Below are positions 21,001 to 27,000 of a stretch of 64,000 nucleotides of DNA, one piece after another. Location of the stretch: assembly GCA_038321865.1 (NCBI GenBank), contig JBBQFH010000008.1, positions 50,517 through 114,516 of the forward strand, given 5' to 3'. Source of the DNA: Gemmatimonadales bacterium. Lineage in GTDB: Bacteria; Gemmatimonadota; Gemmatimonadetes; Gemmatimonadales; GWC2-71-9. A program made the position numbers. Within the stretch, counting starts at the first letter, position 1. Every line of letters starts with the position of its first letter.

Positions 21001-24000
21001 GCCCCCTGCTCGCGCGCCAGCCGCCGTACCAGCGCCGTGTCGTCCGAATCAAGATCGTATCCCGGGGGCCGCGCGATGACGACCTCCATGCCCAGCATCG
21101 CCGCCGCGATCGCGGCGCTGGCCGGCACAGCCGTCGGCAGCGCCTTCGGATGCCAGGCCCACGTCAACACGAAGCGCTTGCCGCAGGTTTCACCGAGCTT
21201 CTCGCGCAGCGTCATGGCGTCGGCCAGCCCCTGGCACGGGTGCCGCCGGGTGGATTCGAGGTTGATCACAGGCTTCTCACAGTAGCGCGCGAAGTCGCGG
21301 ATGACCCGGTCCTCCCGCTCGACCGCCCAGTCCCGTCCCCGGGGAAACACGCGAACCGCGAGCGCGTCGGCGTAGCGGCCCAGCACGCGCGCCGCCTCGG
21401 CGATGTGCTCGACGGCCGTGCCGTCCATCACCGCACCCGGCTCCGTTTCGAGAGACCAGCTGCCCTTGCCCGGCTCCAGCACCACGGCGTGGCCGCCGTG
21501 CAGGAACATGCCGGTCTCGAAGCTGCTTCGGGTGCGAAGACTCGGGTCCATGAATACCATCGCCAGGACCTTCCTTTCGAGCCCGCCGTCGATCTCACCA
21601 CGCTTCACGCGGTCGGCCAGCCCGAGCAGCTCCGTGATCTCGGCCGCCGACCAATCCTCCATCGCCAGAAAGTCCCGCTTGGTCACCTCAGCACCTCTTT
21701 CAGCGCGGCGAGCAGGAGATCGGCCTCGGCGAAGGAAAACGACAGCGGCGGCAGGAGGCGGAGCACGGCGGGGTCCGACGCGGTACCGGTGAGGACCCGG
21801 TGCCCGAACAGGGCACGCTGCACCGGCGCGGCCGGACGGTCCAGGCACAACCCGAGCAGCAGGCCCCGTCCCTGCACCCGCGGGACCCCCATCGCGAGCG
21901 CGCCACGCGTCAGGTGGTCGCCTACCGCGGTCGCGTTGCCGATCAGCCCTTCATCCTCGATGACCCGCAGCGTCGCCAGCGCGGCCGCGCAGGGCACCGG
22001 CCCGCCGCCGAAGGTGCTGCCGAGATCGCCGATGACGAGACCCTCGGCGATGGCGCGGGTCGCGATCACTGCACCGATCGGTATCCCCGACGCCAGCCCT
22101 TTCGCCAGCGTCAGCAGGTCGGGCACGACGCCATACGCCTCGGCCGCGGTGAAGGCCCCGCAGCGGCCGACACCGCACTGCACCTCGTCGAAGATGAGTT
22201 GCGCGCCGCGCTCATCGCAGACTCGCCGGGCAGCCTGGAGAAACTCGACCGAGCAGTCACGCGCGCCCGACATTCCCTGCACCGGCTCGATGATGACACC
22301 GGCAATCGTGTCGTCCACCGCGGCATTCAGCGCGGCGATGTCGTTGAACGGAACCTTTTGCGACAGCGGCATCCCCGCGCGGAGCGCTCCCTCCTCGTAC
22401 TTCGCGCCGTCGGTGACCGCCAGCGTCGCGACCGTGCGCCCGTGCCATCCACCCGCCAGCGACACCATCCCCTGCCGTCCTGTCGTTTTCCGGGCGAGGC
22501 CAAGGGCGTTCTCGTTCGCTTCGGCGCCCGAGTTGCAGAAGAACACGCGCTCGAGCGGGTCCGGCGCGAGCCGGCCAAGCCGGCGCGCGAGCTCGTCGCG
22601 ATTGGGATGCGGCACCACCGATGAATAGAAAAGCAGCTTCGCCGCCTGCTCGCTGATCGCGCGGACCACGGCCGGGTGGCTGTGGCCGGTGGAGGCCACG
22701 GCGTGGCCGCCGTAGGCGTCGAGCCACTCGTTGCCGTCCTCGTCGATCAGCCAGGATCCGTGGCCGGACACCGGGTGCACCGGCATCTGTGCGTAGACGG
22801 GCAGCAGGGCGTCGAGCGTGTCTAGCACGGATAGGCTCCCACGGCCGTGAGGCCGGCATCCTCGGCAAGTCCGAGGGAGAGGTTCATGGCCTGAATCGCC
22901 TGGCCGCCGGCGCCCTTGATCAGGTTGTCGATCGCGACGGTCACCTGGATCTCCCGCCCGTCCTCACTGCCGGCGGCATGGACGAGGGCATAGTTGCCCC
23001 CGACGGCGTGGGTCAGCTCGGGCGGCCGATCGAGTATGCGGACAAACCGCTTGCCATCATACGTGTTCCGGTACGCCGTGATGACGCTGGCAGCCGCCCC
23101 GGCATTGGGGAGATAGGCGTGCAGCGTGAGGTAGATGCCGCGGACGAACGGGCCCGCGTGCACCATGAGGCGCGCGAGCGCGTCGGGCCGGCCGGTCCAC
23201 CCGCGCCAGGCATGCAGCACTTCCGCCTCGTGGCGATGCGCGAGCACCGAATAGGCGAAGACGTTGCTGGCACGAGCCGGGTGGTGCGTGGTCGGCTTCG
23301 GATGCACCCCTGCGCCGCTCGATCCCGTGATGGCGTAGAGCGTCGGCGACACGGCGAGGCCGGCCTGCGCCAGTGGGTAGAGCGCCAGCTGTGCCGCCGT
23401 CGCGAAACACCCGGGCGCCGCGATCGCGGTGGCGCCGCGAAGCCGCTCGCCGAGGACGTCAGCCAGGCCGTAGGTGAAGCGTCCGACCAGATCGGGCGCG
23501 GGATGCGTCCCGTAGTAGCGCTCGTAGAGCCGCGGCGCGGCGATCCGGAAGTCCGCCGCCAGGTCAACGATCATCCCCGGGCCGGCCTCGAAGATTTCGC
23601 TCGCCATGCGGGACGACTCCCCATGCTCCAGGGCGAGGAACACGACGTCGCGGCCCCGGGCCACTTCGCCCGGCGTCTCACCGGAAAAGCGGGCATCGGT
23701 AAGCGGCGCCAGCGTCGGATGCGCCTCAGCGATCGGCTTGCCGGCCTGGCTCCGGCTGGTCGCGACGCACTCGGCGACATTCGGGTGCTGCAGCAGCAGC
23801 CGCAGCAGCTCGCCGCCCACGTATCCGGCGGCGCCGACGACCGCCACCCGAAGACCGCTCACGCGGGTGCGCCGATCAGGGCGGGCGCCGCGGCCGCCGT
23901 CGCCCGCGCCTCGAGGCCGGCGATGGCGGCGGCCACGAGGCCGGCGGCGTCGCGCCGCGCGTTGTGCGCCGGCAGGCCCAGCGACGCGCTGATGTAATCC

Positions 24001-27000
24001 CGGCCCACTTCGTTATCGGTGGCCGGGCCGGTGATGGCGGTGATCGGGAGACCGTACTCGCGACGCATCAGCTCCGCGGCTCCCCAGCAGCCGACCGGGT
24101 CCGGCGCCGCCATGATCCACGCTGCGCCGGCGGCGGCGAGCTCCGGATCGTGCATGATGTCCTGGACGCCGTATTCCCCGAGGATGCCGTCACCGAGCTC
24201 CGCGACGATCACGTCGGGCTTCGCGGCGGCCAGCCGGTTGAAGATGCCCTTGGCCGTCGCCACCGTGACGCCGGGGTGCGTGCTGGCGACGCCGACGTCG
24301 TTGAAGGTGAGCGCGGCGATCGCACCGGCATCGGTCATCGAGAGCACGTCCCGCATGAGCGACACCCCGGTCAGCTTGCACGCCGCGACCCGGTATCCCG
24401 CGCGCACCAGCCCGCGCACCAGTTCCGTCGCCGCCACGGTCTTGCCGGCGTTCATGCAGGTTCCCGCCACGTAGATCACTGGCACGGTGCTGTCGAGCCG
24501 GTCGGCCGGCGGCACCGCGCGGTCGCGGATGTGGGCCGGCCGGCCGACGCGGTCGCCCAGCGCCGGGAAGGTGAGAATCGACCCCAATACCTCGGCGGCG
24601 AACGGCGGACCGATGTCCGGGTTGACCGAAGTGCAGTGCCCAAGAATTCCACCGAGGTTCAGCACGTTGATCGTGTCGCCGACGGCGATGCGGGATGGCA
24701 CGACGCCGGCATACGCGCGGAGCGCGCGCCGGCTGCCGAGGGTGCCGGCGAGCACGTCCCCGGCGCGGAGCGACACCATCCGGCCGGTCAGATCCTCGAC
24801 CGTGTTGTATGACGACTTGTCGTCCAGGATCCGGACCGCGAGCACGTACCCCTCGGCCGGCACGATCTCGTCGCCGACGATGACCTCGGCCGAGAGCTGC
24901 GCGTTCCTGGTGGACGAAGCGATCCGGTCGAGCCGGACCCGCGTGGTGACGACCATCGGCCTCTCCTTACTGGTGGCCGCCCGCGGCGCGTGCCGCGAGC
25001 AGCGACGGAATCGCCGACACCCGGGCAAAGGCGCGGGCCTCGTCGCCGGTCCAGAGATGATTCTCCTCGCCGTATGTCGCGATCGCCGGGTCCATCATCG
25101 AATGGGGACTCCGGGTGCCCACCACCTGAAACCGGCCGGCCGCGAGCCGGATCCGGGTCTCGCCCGTGACCCGCTGCTGCGAGCTGGTGATGAGTGCTTC
25201 GATATCCCGCAGCGCCGGATCGAAGTACTGCCCTTCGTGGAGGCGATCGCCGTAGAAACGGCCGAGCTGGTCCTTCCAGAAGGTCTGCCACTTGGTGAGG
25301 ACGAGCTTCTCCAGCTCGCGATGCGCCGCGATGAGCAGCAGCGCGGCACCGGCTTCGAAGCCGATGCGGCCCTTGATGCCGAGCGCCGTTTCGCCCACGT
25401 GGATGTTGCGGCCGATGCCGTAGCGCTCCGCCAGATCGCCCAGGCGCTCGATGAGACCGGGACCGGTCAGCGCCGCTCCATCGAGCGAGACCGGCAGCCC
25501 CTGGGTCCATGCAACGACGATTTCGACGGGCGCGGGCGCGCCGGCCGGCGGATCGAGCAGCTCCGCCGGCGGACCGGCCCAGGTGTCGTGGGTCCAGCCG
25601 CCACCCCACGTGGTGCCCCAGAGGCCGCGGTTGATCGAGTACGACCCGGCCTTGTCGGGCACCGGCAGGCCCCGCTCCCGGAGGTAGGCGATGGCCTCAT
25701 CGCGTTTGACGGCTTCGTCGCGGATGGGCGTGACGATGTCGAGCTCGGGGGCGAGCACCCGGAGCGCCACATCGAAACGAATCTGATCGTTTCCCGCGCC
25801 GGTCGAGCCGTGTGCGATCGCGATGGCGCCGATGGCCCGTGCCACCTCCAGTACCGACAGCGCCTGCTGCGTCCGCTCGGCGGCGACACTCAGCGGATAC
25901 ACCTCGCCGCGGAGCACGTTGCCCTGCACCAGGTAACGGACGAAGCGGTCGTAGACCTCCTGTCGCGCATCCACCTCGTGATGCTGCACGGCGCCGACCG
26001 CGGCCGCCTGCGCCCGGATGGCGGCGCGCTGGGCGTCACTACTGCCGCCGGTATTCACGAAAATGGTGTGAACAGCCCAGCCCGCCTCGGTGAGGCGCGG
26101 CACGCAGTAGGAAGTATCGAGACCGCCGGAAAAGGCGAGGGCGAGCACGCCGCGTTGAGTTTGCATAATGCATAAATATGCATTATTGCGTCCGGCACGC
26201 AAGGCCCGGACGCGCGAAAGCCCCGGCGGGAAGCCGAGGCTTTCGCCCTGAGCAAGGGCCAGGCTACTTCCGCAGGTCGCGCCGGAGCTCGCGGCGATCC
26301 TGCCGCCGGTCCGCCTGATCGGCCCGCACGTCCCGGTGATCCCGGCGCAGCTCCCGGACGTCACGCCGCATCGCCGCAGGCCGCCCCGCGCGGTGGTCCC
26401 GCCGGAGCTCACGCCGGTCCTGCCGGATTTCGGCCCGGTCGCTCCGCACCTCGCGGTGGTCCCGCCGGAGTTCCCGCCGATCGTGGCGAAGCTCGTGCGG
26501 GTGGGCCGGTGTGGCCTGAGCGGCCGCGGCGGCCGGGAGCCCGGCCAGCAGGCCCAGTGTCGCCGCAATCATGAGCGCGTGTCGCATACGTCCTCCCGGT
26601 GGAGTGAGTTGGAGCGGCGCGGTGCGCGCCGGTCGACACTCAAAGGACGTCGACCGGACGCAGGCGTTAAGCCGGCCCTACCACCCTTCCGCGACCGCCT
26701 GCACCAGCGACCCCAGGCTCACCACGTCGCGCAGGTCGATCACCTCGGCCGGTGAGTGGGCGTATCGGAGCGGCCAGGCGAGCGGCACGTCCGGGACACC
26801 CCACGCAGCGAAGGCCGAGCCGTCGTTTCCGCCGTTGGTGGTGCCCACCTGCAGCGCGATGCCGCGCGCGTGCGCCAGCGAGACCAGCGAATCGAGCAGG
26901 GCCGGCGGAGTGACCGAGCTGTTGTCCACCGCCCGCGCGACCGCGCCCTGCCCCAGCGGGGTCACGGCGAAGGCAGGCAGCTCGAGCGGCGAATCGGCGG

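Follow-up and report, generated by a model that had tools for sequence, protein, structure and literature searches.

The locus described here raises the question of which enzyme opens the linear arginine pathway in a Gemmatimonadales bacterium in whose genome (89.85% complete) profile searches found no ArgJ and no ArgA above cut-off, and in which no short GNAT ArgA was found at E<=1e-12. The Xanthomonas-type NAGS domain PF04768 had no match in this genome or in 50 carriers of the gene discussed below, yet control genomes were unmatched too, so that this does not establish absence. Our analysis of a 64,000-nucleotide stretch of contig JBBQFH010000008.1 (the window) points to gene X, an open 365-aa frame at 23859..24956 (-). 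We predict that its product very probably is the missing first enzyme of the pathway, in the slot of ArgA, and that it probably makes N-succinyl-L-glutamate, the entry to the succinylated linear arginine pathway. This explanation is built on the position of X in the operon, the exclusion of other first-step enzymes, the specificity residues of ArgF' and the kept residues of the P-loop.

Flanked by argG and argC, X belongs to an operon headed by an ARG-box-like palindrome (26168..26183), which abuts the inferred start of argG. By the ARG-box consensus this palindrome would be an ArgR operator; it is the only match in the window and the sole exact match in the whole 3.4-Mb genome, it was matched by 0/100 shuffles, and a scan for sigma-70 promoters 5' of argG found nothing. 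The gene argG itself (argininosuccinate synthase, 24967..26166 (-), start codon inferred) exceeds the cut-offs of PF00764 and PF20979, with PRK04527 as its best NCBIfam match (316 bits, below the cut-off of that model). Its stop is overlapped by a ribosome-binding-like AAGGAG ahead of X, and the stop of X overlaps the GTG start of argC (22822..23862 (-); TIGR01850, 323.7 bits, cut-off 233.6). There follow, all on the minus strand, argD for N-acylornithine aminotransferase (21683..22828; PF00202 over cut-off, the best NCBIfam matches being argD families, all below their cut-offs), argF' for a knotted transcarbamylase of the N-succinylornithine type (20670..21686, start inferred; PRK04523, 419.5 bits), argB for N-acylglutamate kinase (19738..20673; TIGR00761, 223 bits, over cut-off), an argE-like gene for an M20 deacylase (18684..19760; PF01546 and PF07687; TIGR01910, 145.7 bits, under cut-off), argH for argininosuccinate lyase (17320..18690, start approximate; TIGR00838, 289.7 bits, over cut-off) and argR for the arginine repressor (16880..17323; TIGR01529, 115 bits, E 2.6e-33, below the 130-bit cut-off). 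The argB product consists of the kinase domain only, without a GNAT domain, its match to the 429-position ArgA model being confined to positions 4-279; the argE-like product is probably an N-succinylcitrulline desuccinylase. The initial annotation had placed a 365-aa gene between argG and argC of an arginine operon, and its frame, its neighbours and argR were all confirmed.

The product of X has two domains, a beta-rich N-terminal domain (about residues 1-150) and a P-loop domain (about 155-355), and carries the motifs GTCMNAGKT (165-173), K194-L-T-G, D203, E253-L-G-D-G and GPATDN (310-315). In the Pfam and NCBIfam profile search all its matches were sub-threshold, that of DUF1611 (PF07755) reaching 17.8 bits over 40 residues at a cut-off of 25, and no GNAT or ArgJ domain was matched; a PDB sequence search with X as the sole query gave no match, and the ESM Atlas supplied automatic DUF1611 or hypothetical names only. 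At E<=1e-10 the homologues comprise 890 cluster representatives, a number that falls to 173 at 1e-30. Among divergent homologues K172, K194 and E253 are kept in 63/63, T173 in 62/63 and D203 in 61/63. The reading of X as a shadow ORF was rejected on strong conservation and on a confident structure model (pLDDT 96.8). A quick tree of the family has weak deep support, and we draw no claim on origin from it.

The neighbourhoods of X homologues were compared at 79 distant loci of seven phyla. All 79 have an arg gene, as had been reported earlier for what is possibly the same set of loci, so that the two counts are not independent; two or more arg genes stand at 76, argG is directly upstream in 73 and argC directly downstream in 71. 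One could argue that X replaces a later step, for instance the desuccinylase ArgE, as argE is missing from some X operons (L078-L085, L113, L066) and GapMind 2026 notes a missing argE for Steroidobacter too. However, the window's own operon contains argE, which also stands beside X in 50/79 loci, and the fold of X is that of a P-loop protein, not of a metallohydrolase, so this replacement is hardly credible. Where nearby argF' was not found (L066, L183-L185), X is still accompanied by argC-argD-argB. This company, together with argE at 50 loci, therefore assigns X to an ornithine-forming module and not to the replacement of ArgE. Protection of the LysX/LysW type was rejected as well, such genes being absent from the 79 loci except for one distant LysX-like blastp match (L113). 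A homologue 36% identical to X lies outside any arg cluster in one genome (G043), and therefore the wide X family is not all arginine-linked.

Operon-type X was found in 47 of 150 genomes of the phylum, and ArgJ in none of these 47 versus 49 other genomes. The absence of ArgJ alone is weak evidence, because ArgJ is dispensable in a linear ArgF'/ArgE route; the short GNAT ArgA is likewise absent from all 47. Among the 118 phylum genomes with an ArgC-family match, the window's own genome apart, 47 have operon-type X, 48 have ArgJ, 10 have an operon-linked short GNAT ArgA without ArgJ, 4 have only a weaker unlinked GNAT match, 8 have a LysX-type cluster and in 1 nothing was found; X overlaps with ArgJ in none and with GNAT in none. 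ArgJ, a GNAT ArgA-like gene or LysX is present in 70 of the 71 X-free genomes of this table, and in the window's family argC occurs in 62/74 genomes, which are exactly the 42 with X and the 20 with ArgJ. The 75-bit GNAT threshold was chosen after a gap in the scores had been seen (75.5 vs 61.6 bits), the genomes sampled, most of them MAGs, are related to one another, which makes the counts non-independent, and the arg operon may travel whole as one block.

Among distant carriers ArgJ was found in 0/50, and two-domain ArgA in 0/72 carriers (50 distant and 22 from the phylum); a short GNAT ArgA was found in 1/50 (G155). We rejected this co-occurrence as a counter-example: the actinobacterial-type NAGS adjoins a lysyl-tRNA ligase that is likewise of actinobacterial type, on a contig of 3.3 kb within a Phycisphaerae bin, and this contig is probably misbinned. 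The initial annotation had left the loophole of a short GNAT NAGS elsewhere in the genome, which these counts (0/47 and 1/50) do not bear out, and its proposal that X fills the first-step slot is supported by the exclusion of ArgJ and ArgA (0/47 each). It could still be that X is an accessory NTPase, a UreG/HypB/ApbC-like metal chaperone for ArgE or a regulator, and that an unrecognised GNAT, ArsN2 or the DUF1611 protein elsewhere in the genome supplies the acylglutamate. The own genome encodes 12 PF00583 GNATs, ArsN2 among them, and a separate true DUF1611 protein (254.9 bits), and the fold search with X also brought up ApbC, HypB and UreG (Z 13.1-15.4). However, X is kept in the argE-free operons, a clean alternation with ArgJ and short ArgA is not expected of a chaperone, and an ArgA-type GNAT gene is found in none of the 79 X loci. 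Thus an accessory role is very unlikely, and a first-step enzyme remains our reading.

The acyl group can be approached through ArgF', for which residues that distinguish N-succinyl from N-acetyl specificity have been described (PMC4581275). The window ArgF' has V, P and E at the X. campestris positions 92, 185 and 302. Val at position 92, one of the residues (A, P, S or V) expected there in ArgF' neighbours of the GapMind family, also occurs in the top PDB match of this ArgF' and in 29/29 close loci; the 57 distant loci have A (47), V (4), Q (3), P (2) or T (1), and the acetyl-type Glu occurs in 0/86 X-neighbouring ArgF' proteins. Because all three positions are of the succinyl type and Glu is absent from these 86, the product is probably N-succinylglutamate, and succinyl is overall the probable acyl group. 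The initial annotation had proposed N-acetylglutamate, made from acetyl-CoA or from ATP and acetate. NCBIfam indeed labels the window ArgF' N-acetylornithine carbamoyltransferase, and an acetyl route via ornithine is conceivable, given seven X carriers with no ArgF' match and an ordinary OTCase in the own genome. However, the NCBIfam model does not separate both types here, and the diagnostic residues are contrary to an acetyl product, which we consider unlikely; in the seven carriers the acyl group is not readable because there is no ArgF' match.

As to the chemistry, the best fold matches of X are 2g0t (Z 17.3), 2obn (16.1), BioD (15.5-15.7; BioD-type matches overall 14.2-15.7) and the DgcN structure 7xrj (15.3), mostly over about 180 aligned residues. 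For DUF1611/DgcN the rmsd is 2.8-3.0 over 179-184 residues, on a P-loop fold common to BioD and ApbC; the alignments cover mainly residues 152-354, and a single-sequence model of residues 1-155 has a pLDDT of 35.9. These folds, the model confidence and the 890 representatives reproduce what had been noted before. By fold, DUF1611 entries rank equal to or above BioD, an observation that speaks against ligase chemistry.

The initial annotation had called X DUF1611/DgcN-like. Against the DgcN model NF041892 X had no match at E<=0.01, and the motifs GTD..GK(M/R), ATGQTG and EGQG of 7xrj, 2obn and 2g0t are absent from X, which has GTCMNAGKT, CKLTGV and ELGDG instead. The best PDB match of the X-family profile is M. 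tuberculosis BioD; HMMER pairs GKT, the Lys and the Asp in this short match (about 50 positions, E 8.5e-5), and E253 was paired with the BioD Glu through motif inspection only. BioD performs ATP-dependent carboxylate activation, and we take the Walker-A GKT, the second Lys, the Asp and the Glu of X to have the active-site roles of BioD. Against the BioD model TIGR00347 X reaches 17.2 bits (cut-off 83.3), with 365 aa versus about 220 aa. Shallow profile alignments gave a probability of 29% with two DUF1611 sequences and 79% with three of BioD, and a predicted homodimer with ATP and Mg scored 0.32 (mark 0.42). Since profiles and motifs failed and the residues follow BioD, sequence comparison places X outside DUF1611/DgcN.

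Because GKT, K194, D203 and E253 are of BioD type where DgcN differs, the likeliest chemistry, which we slightly favour, would be that of a dethiobiotin-synthetase-like ligase of ATP and succinate. The P-loop would hold ATP-Mg and succinate would be phosphorylated; the amino group of glutamate would attack the acyl-phosphate, and N-succinylglutamate would be released together with ADP and phosphate, no CoA being involved. ArgB, ArgC, ArgD, the succinyl-type ArgF', ArgE, ArgG and ArgH would carry N-succinylglutamate on to arginine, under the control of ArgR. In its full form, a CoA-independent, ATP-driven, BioD-like succinate:glutamate ligase acting via succinyl-phosphate, the proposal is tentative, its chances being somewhat under even. 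The same function could be served by a different chemistry, implied by GapMind: a DgcN-like succinyl-CoA:glutamate N-succinyltransferase, in which the P-loop pocket holds the nucleotide end of CoA. DUF1611 proteins are the top folds, with DgcN tying BioD (15.3 vs 15.5); DgcN is titled N-acetyltransferase in the PDB and NCBIfam, so that a related fold appears capable of acyl transfer; and the Bacteroides enzyme for the same step is a GNAT-family acyltransferase (PMC8121099). However, DgcN, 2obn and 2g0t carry M, M or R after the Walker-A Lys, where X follows BioD, and their Ala-Thr-Gly-Gln contrasts with the BioD-like Lys194-Leu-Thr-Gly of X. Additionally, the near-invariant T173, D203 and E253, whose roles in X we take from BioD, suggest Mg-nucleotide chemistry. 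A transferase is therefore possible, though doubtful.

If true, the ligase would give at least seven phyla an entry that differs chemically from the acyl-CoA (ArgA), transacetylase (ArgJ) and carrier-protein (LysW/LysX-type) routes, and acyl-CoA assays and E. coli argA complementation would be expected to miss its activity. With this assignment the arginine pathway becomes complete on paper in roughly one third of the phylum genomes sampled (47/150), lineages of six other phyla that otherwise look auxotrophic likewise gain a complete pathway, and succinylated arginine synthesis would extend well beyond Bacteroides. To a specialist the assignment is unsurprising, as the function is already in print as a prediction. 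GapMind 2026 (PMC13759103) lists Steroidobacter ACG33_RS14135, without experimental evidence, as a predicted alternative N-succinylglutamate synthase, the missing ArgA, although an expression plasmid for this protein is included in its supplement. The 1074-bp insert in the plasmid map of supplement 4 shows by eye AGTCMEAGKT, FELGDG and GPATDN and reads close, as judged by eye and not by program, to P0127; the latter shares 48% identity with X across 342 aa (E 4e-99). By these motifs and P0127, X appears homologous to A0A127FCT3 (ACG33_RS14135 family), and it has the family's arg operon location and a genome, 89.85% complete, without ArgA. GapMind reached the same function independently, and the synthase is not new, contrary to what had been claimed; what we contribute is the placement of X outside DUF1611/DgcN and its BioD-type residues.

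Compared with known systems, the GapMind family is like X in its arg operons with succinyl-type ArgF', its exclusion with ArgA and a weak likeness to 7XRJ, and its host is of another phylum; in the sections consulted the exclusion was tested against Pseudomonas ArgA only and a P-loop or ATP-dependent mechanism is not discussed, 'P-loop' having 0 occurrences in the preprint text. The GNAT enzymes, namely two-domain ArgA, short ArgA (PRK07757, PRK07922) and the Bacteroides N-succinylglutamate synthase BT3761, whose place in a succinylated pathway has genetic support (PMC8121099), share the pathway step with X but have an unrelated fold and alternate with X across genomes. The D-glutamate N-acetyltransferase DgcN and the DUF1611 proteins (7XRJ, 2G0T, 2OBN; PF07755, NF041892) have, like X, two domains in 330-360 aa, a C-terminal P-loop and glutamate N-acylation as the presumed reaction, but their identity to X is 10-15%, their P-loop and downstream motifs are different, and the context of X is biosynthetic. 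BioD shares with X the GTxxxxGKT loop, the Lys that ends the next strand and then the Asp and the E-x-G motif, whereas X has an additional N-terminal domain of 150 residues and its location in the arg operon.

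Gene X (window positions 24956-23859, minus strand, a frame of 365 aa) is a real feature and lies inside the arginine operon, as the initial annotation held: an AAGGAG just upstream overlaps the argG stop, the TGA of X overlaps the GTG of argC, and the neighbours are argG upstream and argC downstream, with argD, argF' (knotted transcarbamylase), argB, a gene for an argE-like M20 deacylase, argH and argR. A palindrome at 26168-26183, which we take to be ARG-box-like from the general consensus, directly adjoins the start inferred for argG. No other match occurs in the window and no other exact one in the genome, and none of 100 shuffles gives a match. 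Upstream of argG, a 107-aa ORF (26264-26587) begins like a signal peptide and contains repeated units rich in R, D and H. Two further ArgR-like genes of this genome (C24:12224-12664 and C94:1731-2171) each follow a gene that sequence inspection labels amidohydrolase-like. In X operons ArgB is a long protein of about 300 aa (19738-20673 in this operon), against 250 aa in non-carriers. Unlike the non-carriers' ArgB, it matches the two-domain ArgA model over the kinase half at 107-170 bits, and it may retain feedback control by arginine.

The role of X in the first step of the pathway is well supported by its exclusion with ArgJ and short ArgA, which this analysis adds. In its own genome (89.85% complete) ArgJ was not found, the best ArgA match is the kinase domain of ArgB, and a short GNAT ArgA, a point the initial annotation had left open, is absent at E<=1e-12, the nearest GNAT being ArsN2 inside an arsenic cluster. 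In one draw of 150 Gemmatimonadota genomes, X is present in 48 (47 beside argC, the unpublished G053 among them, and one distant copy in G043) and ArgJ in 49, with no overlap, which confirms the proposed lack of co-occurrence. Within the window's family, the 62 of 74 genomes with argC are exactly the 42 with X plus the 20 with ArgJ, and the 12 without argC carry neither. ArgA is the sharper test, since a linear pathway is expected to lack ArgJ. A short GNAT ArgA-like gene (NF005840 at 75 bits or more, a threshold set afterwards at the gap between 75.5 and 61.6 bits) occurs in 53 of the 150 genomes and in none of the 47 carriers of X beside argC, whose best, at 59 bits, are partial matches. Among the 71 ArgC-family genomes without such an X, 48 have ArgJ, a further 10 a GNAT ArgA directly after argD, 4 only an unlinked GNAT of 78-96 bits, 8 a LysX-type cluster, and one (G017, 91% complete) no first-step gene accounting for it; these counts are given without a statistic because the genomes are kin. 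In several genomes of the phylum, LysW/LysX-type clusters hold a 209-223 aa class-II amidotransferase-like gene (EgtC-like, about 43 bits; L059:7389-8057, L060:9286-9933, L061:9178-9804) between the reductase and kinase genes, which, as a guess, might replace the carrier-releasing peptidase.

A search with the homologue P0123 gave 79 distant loci from seven phyla, many of them Holophagaceae. All 79 contain an arg gene, 76 two or more, 50 have X and argE together, and none holds ArgJ or short ArgA within the locus. At the genome level, checked for 50 of these 79 (including the unpublished G173), ArgJ is absent and short ArgA occurs once, as an NAGS of actinobacterial type whose 3.3-kb contig, from a Phycisphaerae bin, is probably misbinned; two-domain ArgA is absent from 72 carriers (these 50 and 22 of the phylum). 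A deeper metagenome homologue (40% identity) lies in the order argR-X-argC-argD-argF'-argB-argG, and the association of X with argC-argD-argB persists where no argF' is found nearby, in argR-X-argC-argD-argB clusters (L066, L183, L184 and L185 of genomes G057, G039, G123 and G120). At two loci, argG and X are separated by an inserted gene of GxxExxY or four-helix-bundle type (L081:3854-4192, L085:7578-7943). The G043 homologue (36% identity; L065:7874-8944, contig C21) has the same P-loop motifs as X and precedes a PGA_cap plus peptidase M36 gene and an ABC transporter, with no arg genes; this counts against generalising the arginine link to the wider family, which probably acts on other substrates. 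Another homologue, P0223, has Trp in place of many conserved Gly residues, which would be expected if TGA coded for Gly in a Gracilibacteria-type code; such lineages are not known to synthesise amino acids, and thus its role there may differ.

The product was initially given as N-acetylglutamate, which is probably wrong: the residues of ArgF' point to N-succinylglutamate. In the PDB, the window's ArgF' is matched best by a variant of a Xanthomonas enzyme in which Val replaces wild-type Glu92, and the window's protein itself has Val at this position. Passages of PMC4581275 assign Glu92, Asn185 and Lys302 to the acetyl type, and A/S/P/V/Q at 92, P at 185 and V/I/E at 302 to the succinyl type. 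The window's ArgF' has V, P and E, and the same holds at 29 of 29 close loci. Among 57 distant loci, residue 92 is A in 47, V in 4, Q in 3, P in 2 and T in 1; residue 185 is P in 56 of 56, and residue 302 is E in 49 and V in 7. The succinyl reading is qualified by seven X carriers without an ArgF' match, whose pathway may pass through ornithine and an ordinary OTCase, and by such an OTCase in the window's own genome (C21:38532-39440, adjoining a gcvT-like gene, labelled by sequence inspection).

Nor is the enzyme a new candidate: by our sequence check, X belongs to the family of Steroidobacter ACG33_RS14135, which GapMind 2026 already predicts to be an alternative N-succinylglutamate synthase. 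The prediction in that paper (PMC13759103) rests on operon context, weak likeness to 7XRJ, the ArgF' residue and exclusion with Pseudomonas ArgA (109 versus 970 genera), and the paper lists no experimental evidence for the enzyme. Its Supplement 4 contains an expression plasmid carrying the Steroidobacter gene, whose 1074-bp insert encodes, by eye, AGTCMEAGKT, FELGDG and GPATDN, close to P0127, a homologue 48% identical to X; the text passages searched give no result for that plasmid. Relatives of X number 3216 among 8000 scored candidates, with 890 representatives at E<=1e-10 and 173 at 1e-30, and its close relatives carry the label Gemmatimonadales. No family profile is exceeded (DUF1611 17.8 bits, cut-off 25; BioD 17.2 bits, cut-off 83.3). 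Membership in DUF1611/DgcN, as first annotated, fails by profile and by motif, and a true DUF1611 member (254.9 bits) lies elsewhere in the genome, at L176:1087-2166 (contig C18). Flanked by a membrane protein gene and an ABC transporter, it reaches 277 bits on the DgcN model, below its cut-off of 480, and no epimerase gene was seen in this 3.6-kb locus. X is likewise not a BioD, although its mechanism may be similar.

In the model of X (pLDDT 96.8) an N-terminal domain rich in beta structure is joined to a P-loop domain. The model matches 2g0t (Z 17.3), 2obn (16.1), BioD (15.5-15.7), ApbC (15.4) and DgcN (15.3), most of the alignments spanning about 180 residues, with BioD as the top Foldseek rank. 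The fold alone does not settle the chemistry, and the residues lean toward the BioD-like side. All of 63 homologues at 27-56% identity keep G171, K172, K194 and E253, 62 keep T173 and 61 keep D203; the best PDB sequence match of the family profile is M. tuberculosis BioD (E 8.5e-5), the alignment pairing the GKT loop, the second Lys and the Asp. The BioD counterparts of these residues bind Mg-ATP and an acyl-phosphate intermediate, and therefore we favour a ligase, by which X would convert ATP, succinate and L-glutamate to N-succinylglutamate, ADP and Pi; granted the first-step role, this chemistry seems slightly better than an even bet. The BioD P-loop and Lys37 are described in PMC8659263. 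In the N-terminal domain, Y50, E54 and R76 (79 of 79 loci) and S14 (77 of 77 covered) are invariant candidate binding residues for glutamate or succinate. The ATP-dependent reading, which this analysis adds, is testable, and a literature search covering few subscription papers found no earlier statement of it. That X is instead a succinyl-CoA transferase, again within the first-step case, is a doubtful alternative: DgcN is among its fold matches, but the P-loop and downstream motifs of DgcN, 2obn and 2g0t (GKM or GKR, and ATGQTG) differ from those of X. The ATP-dependent ligase finds its parallel in E. coli BioD, which carries GKT, YKP, SD and EGAGG at places matching X.
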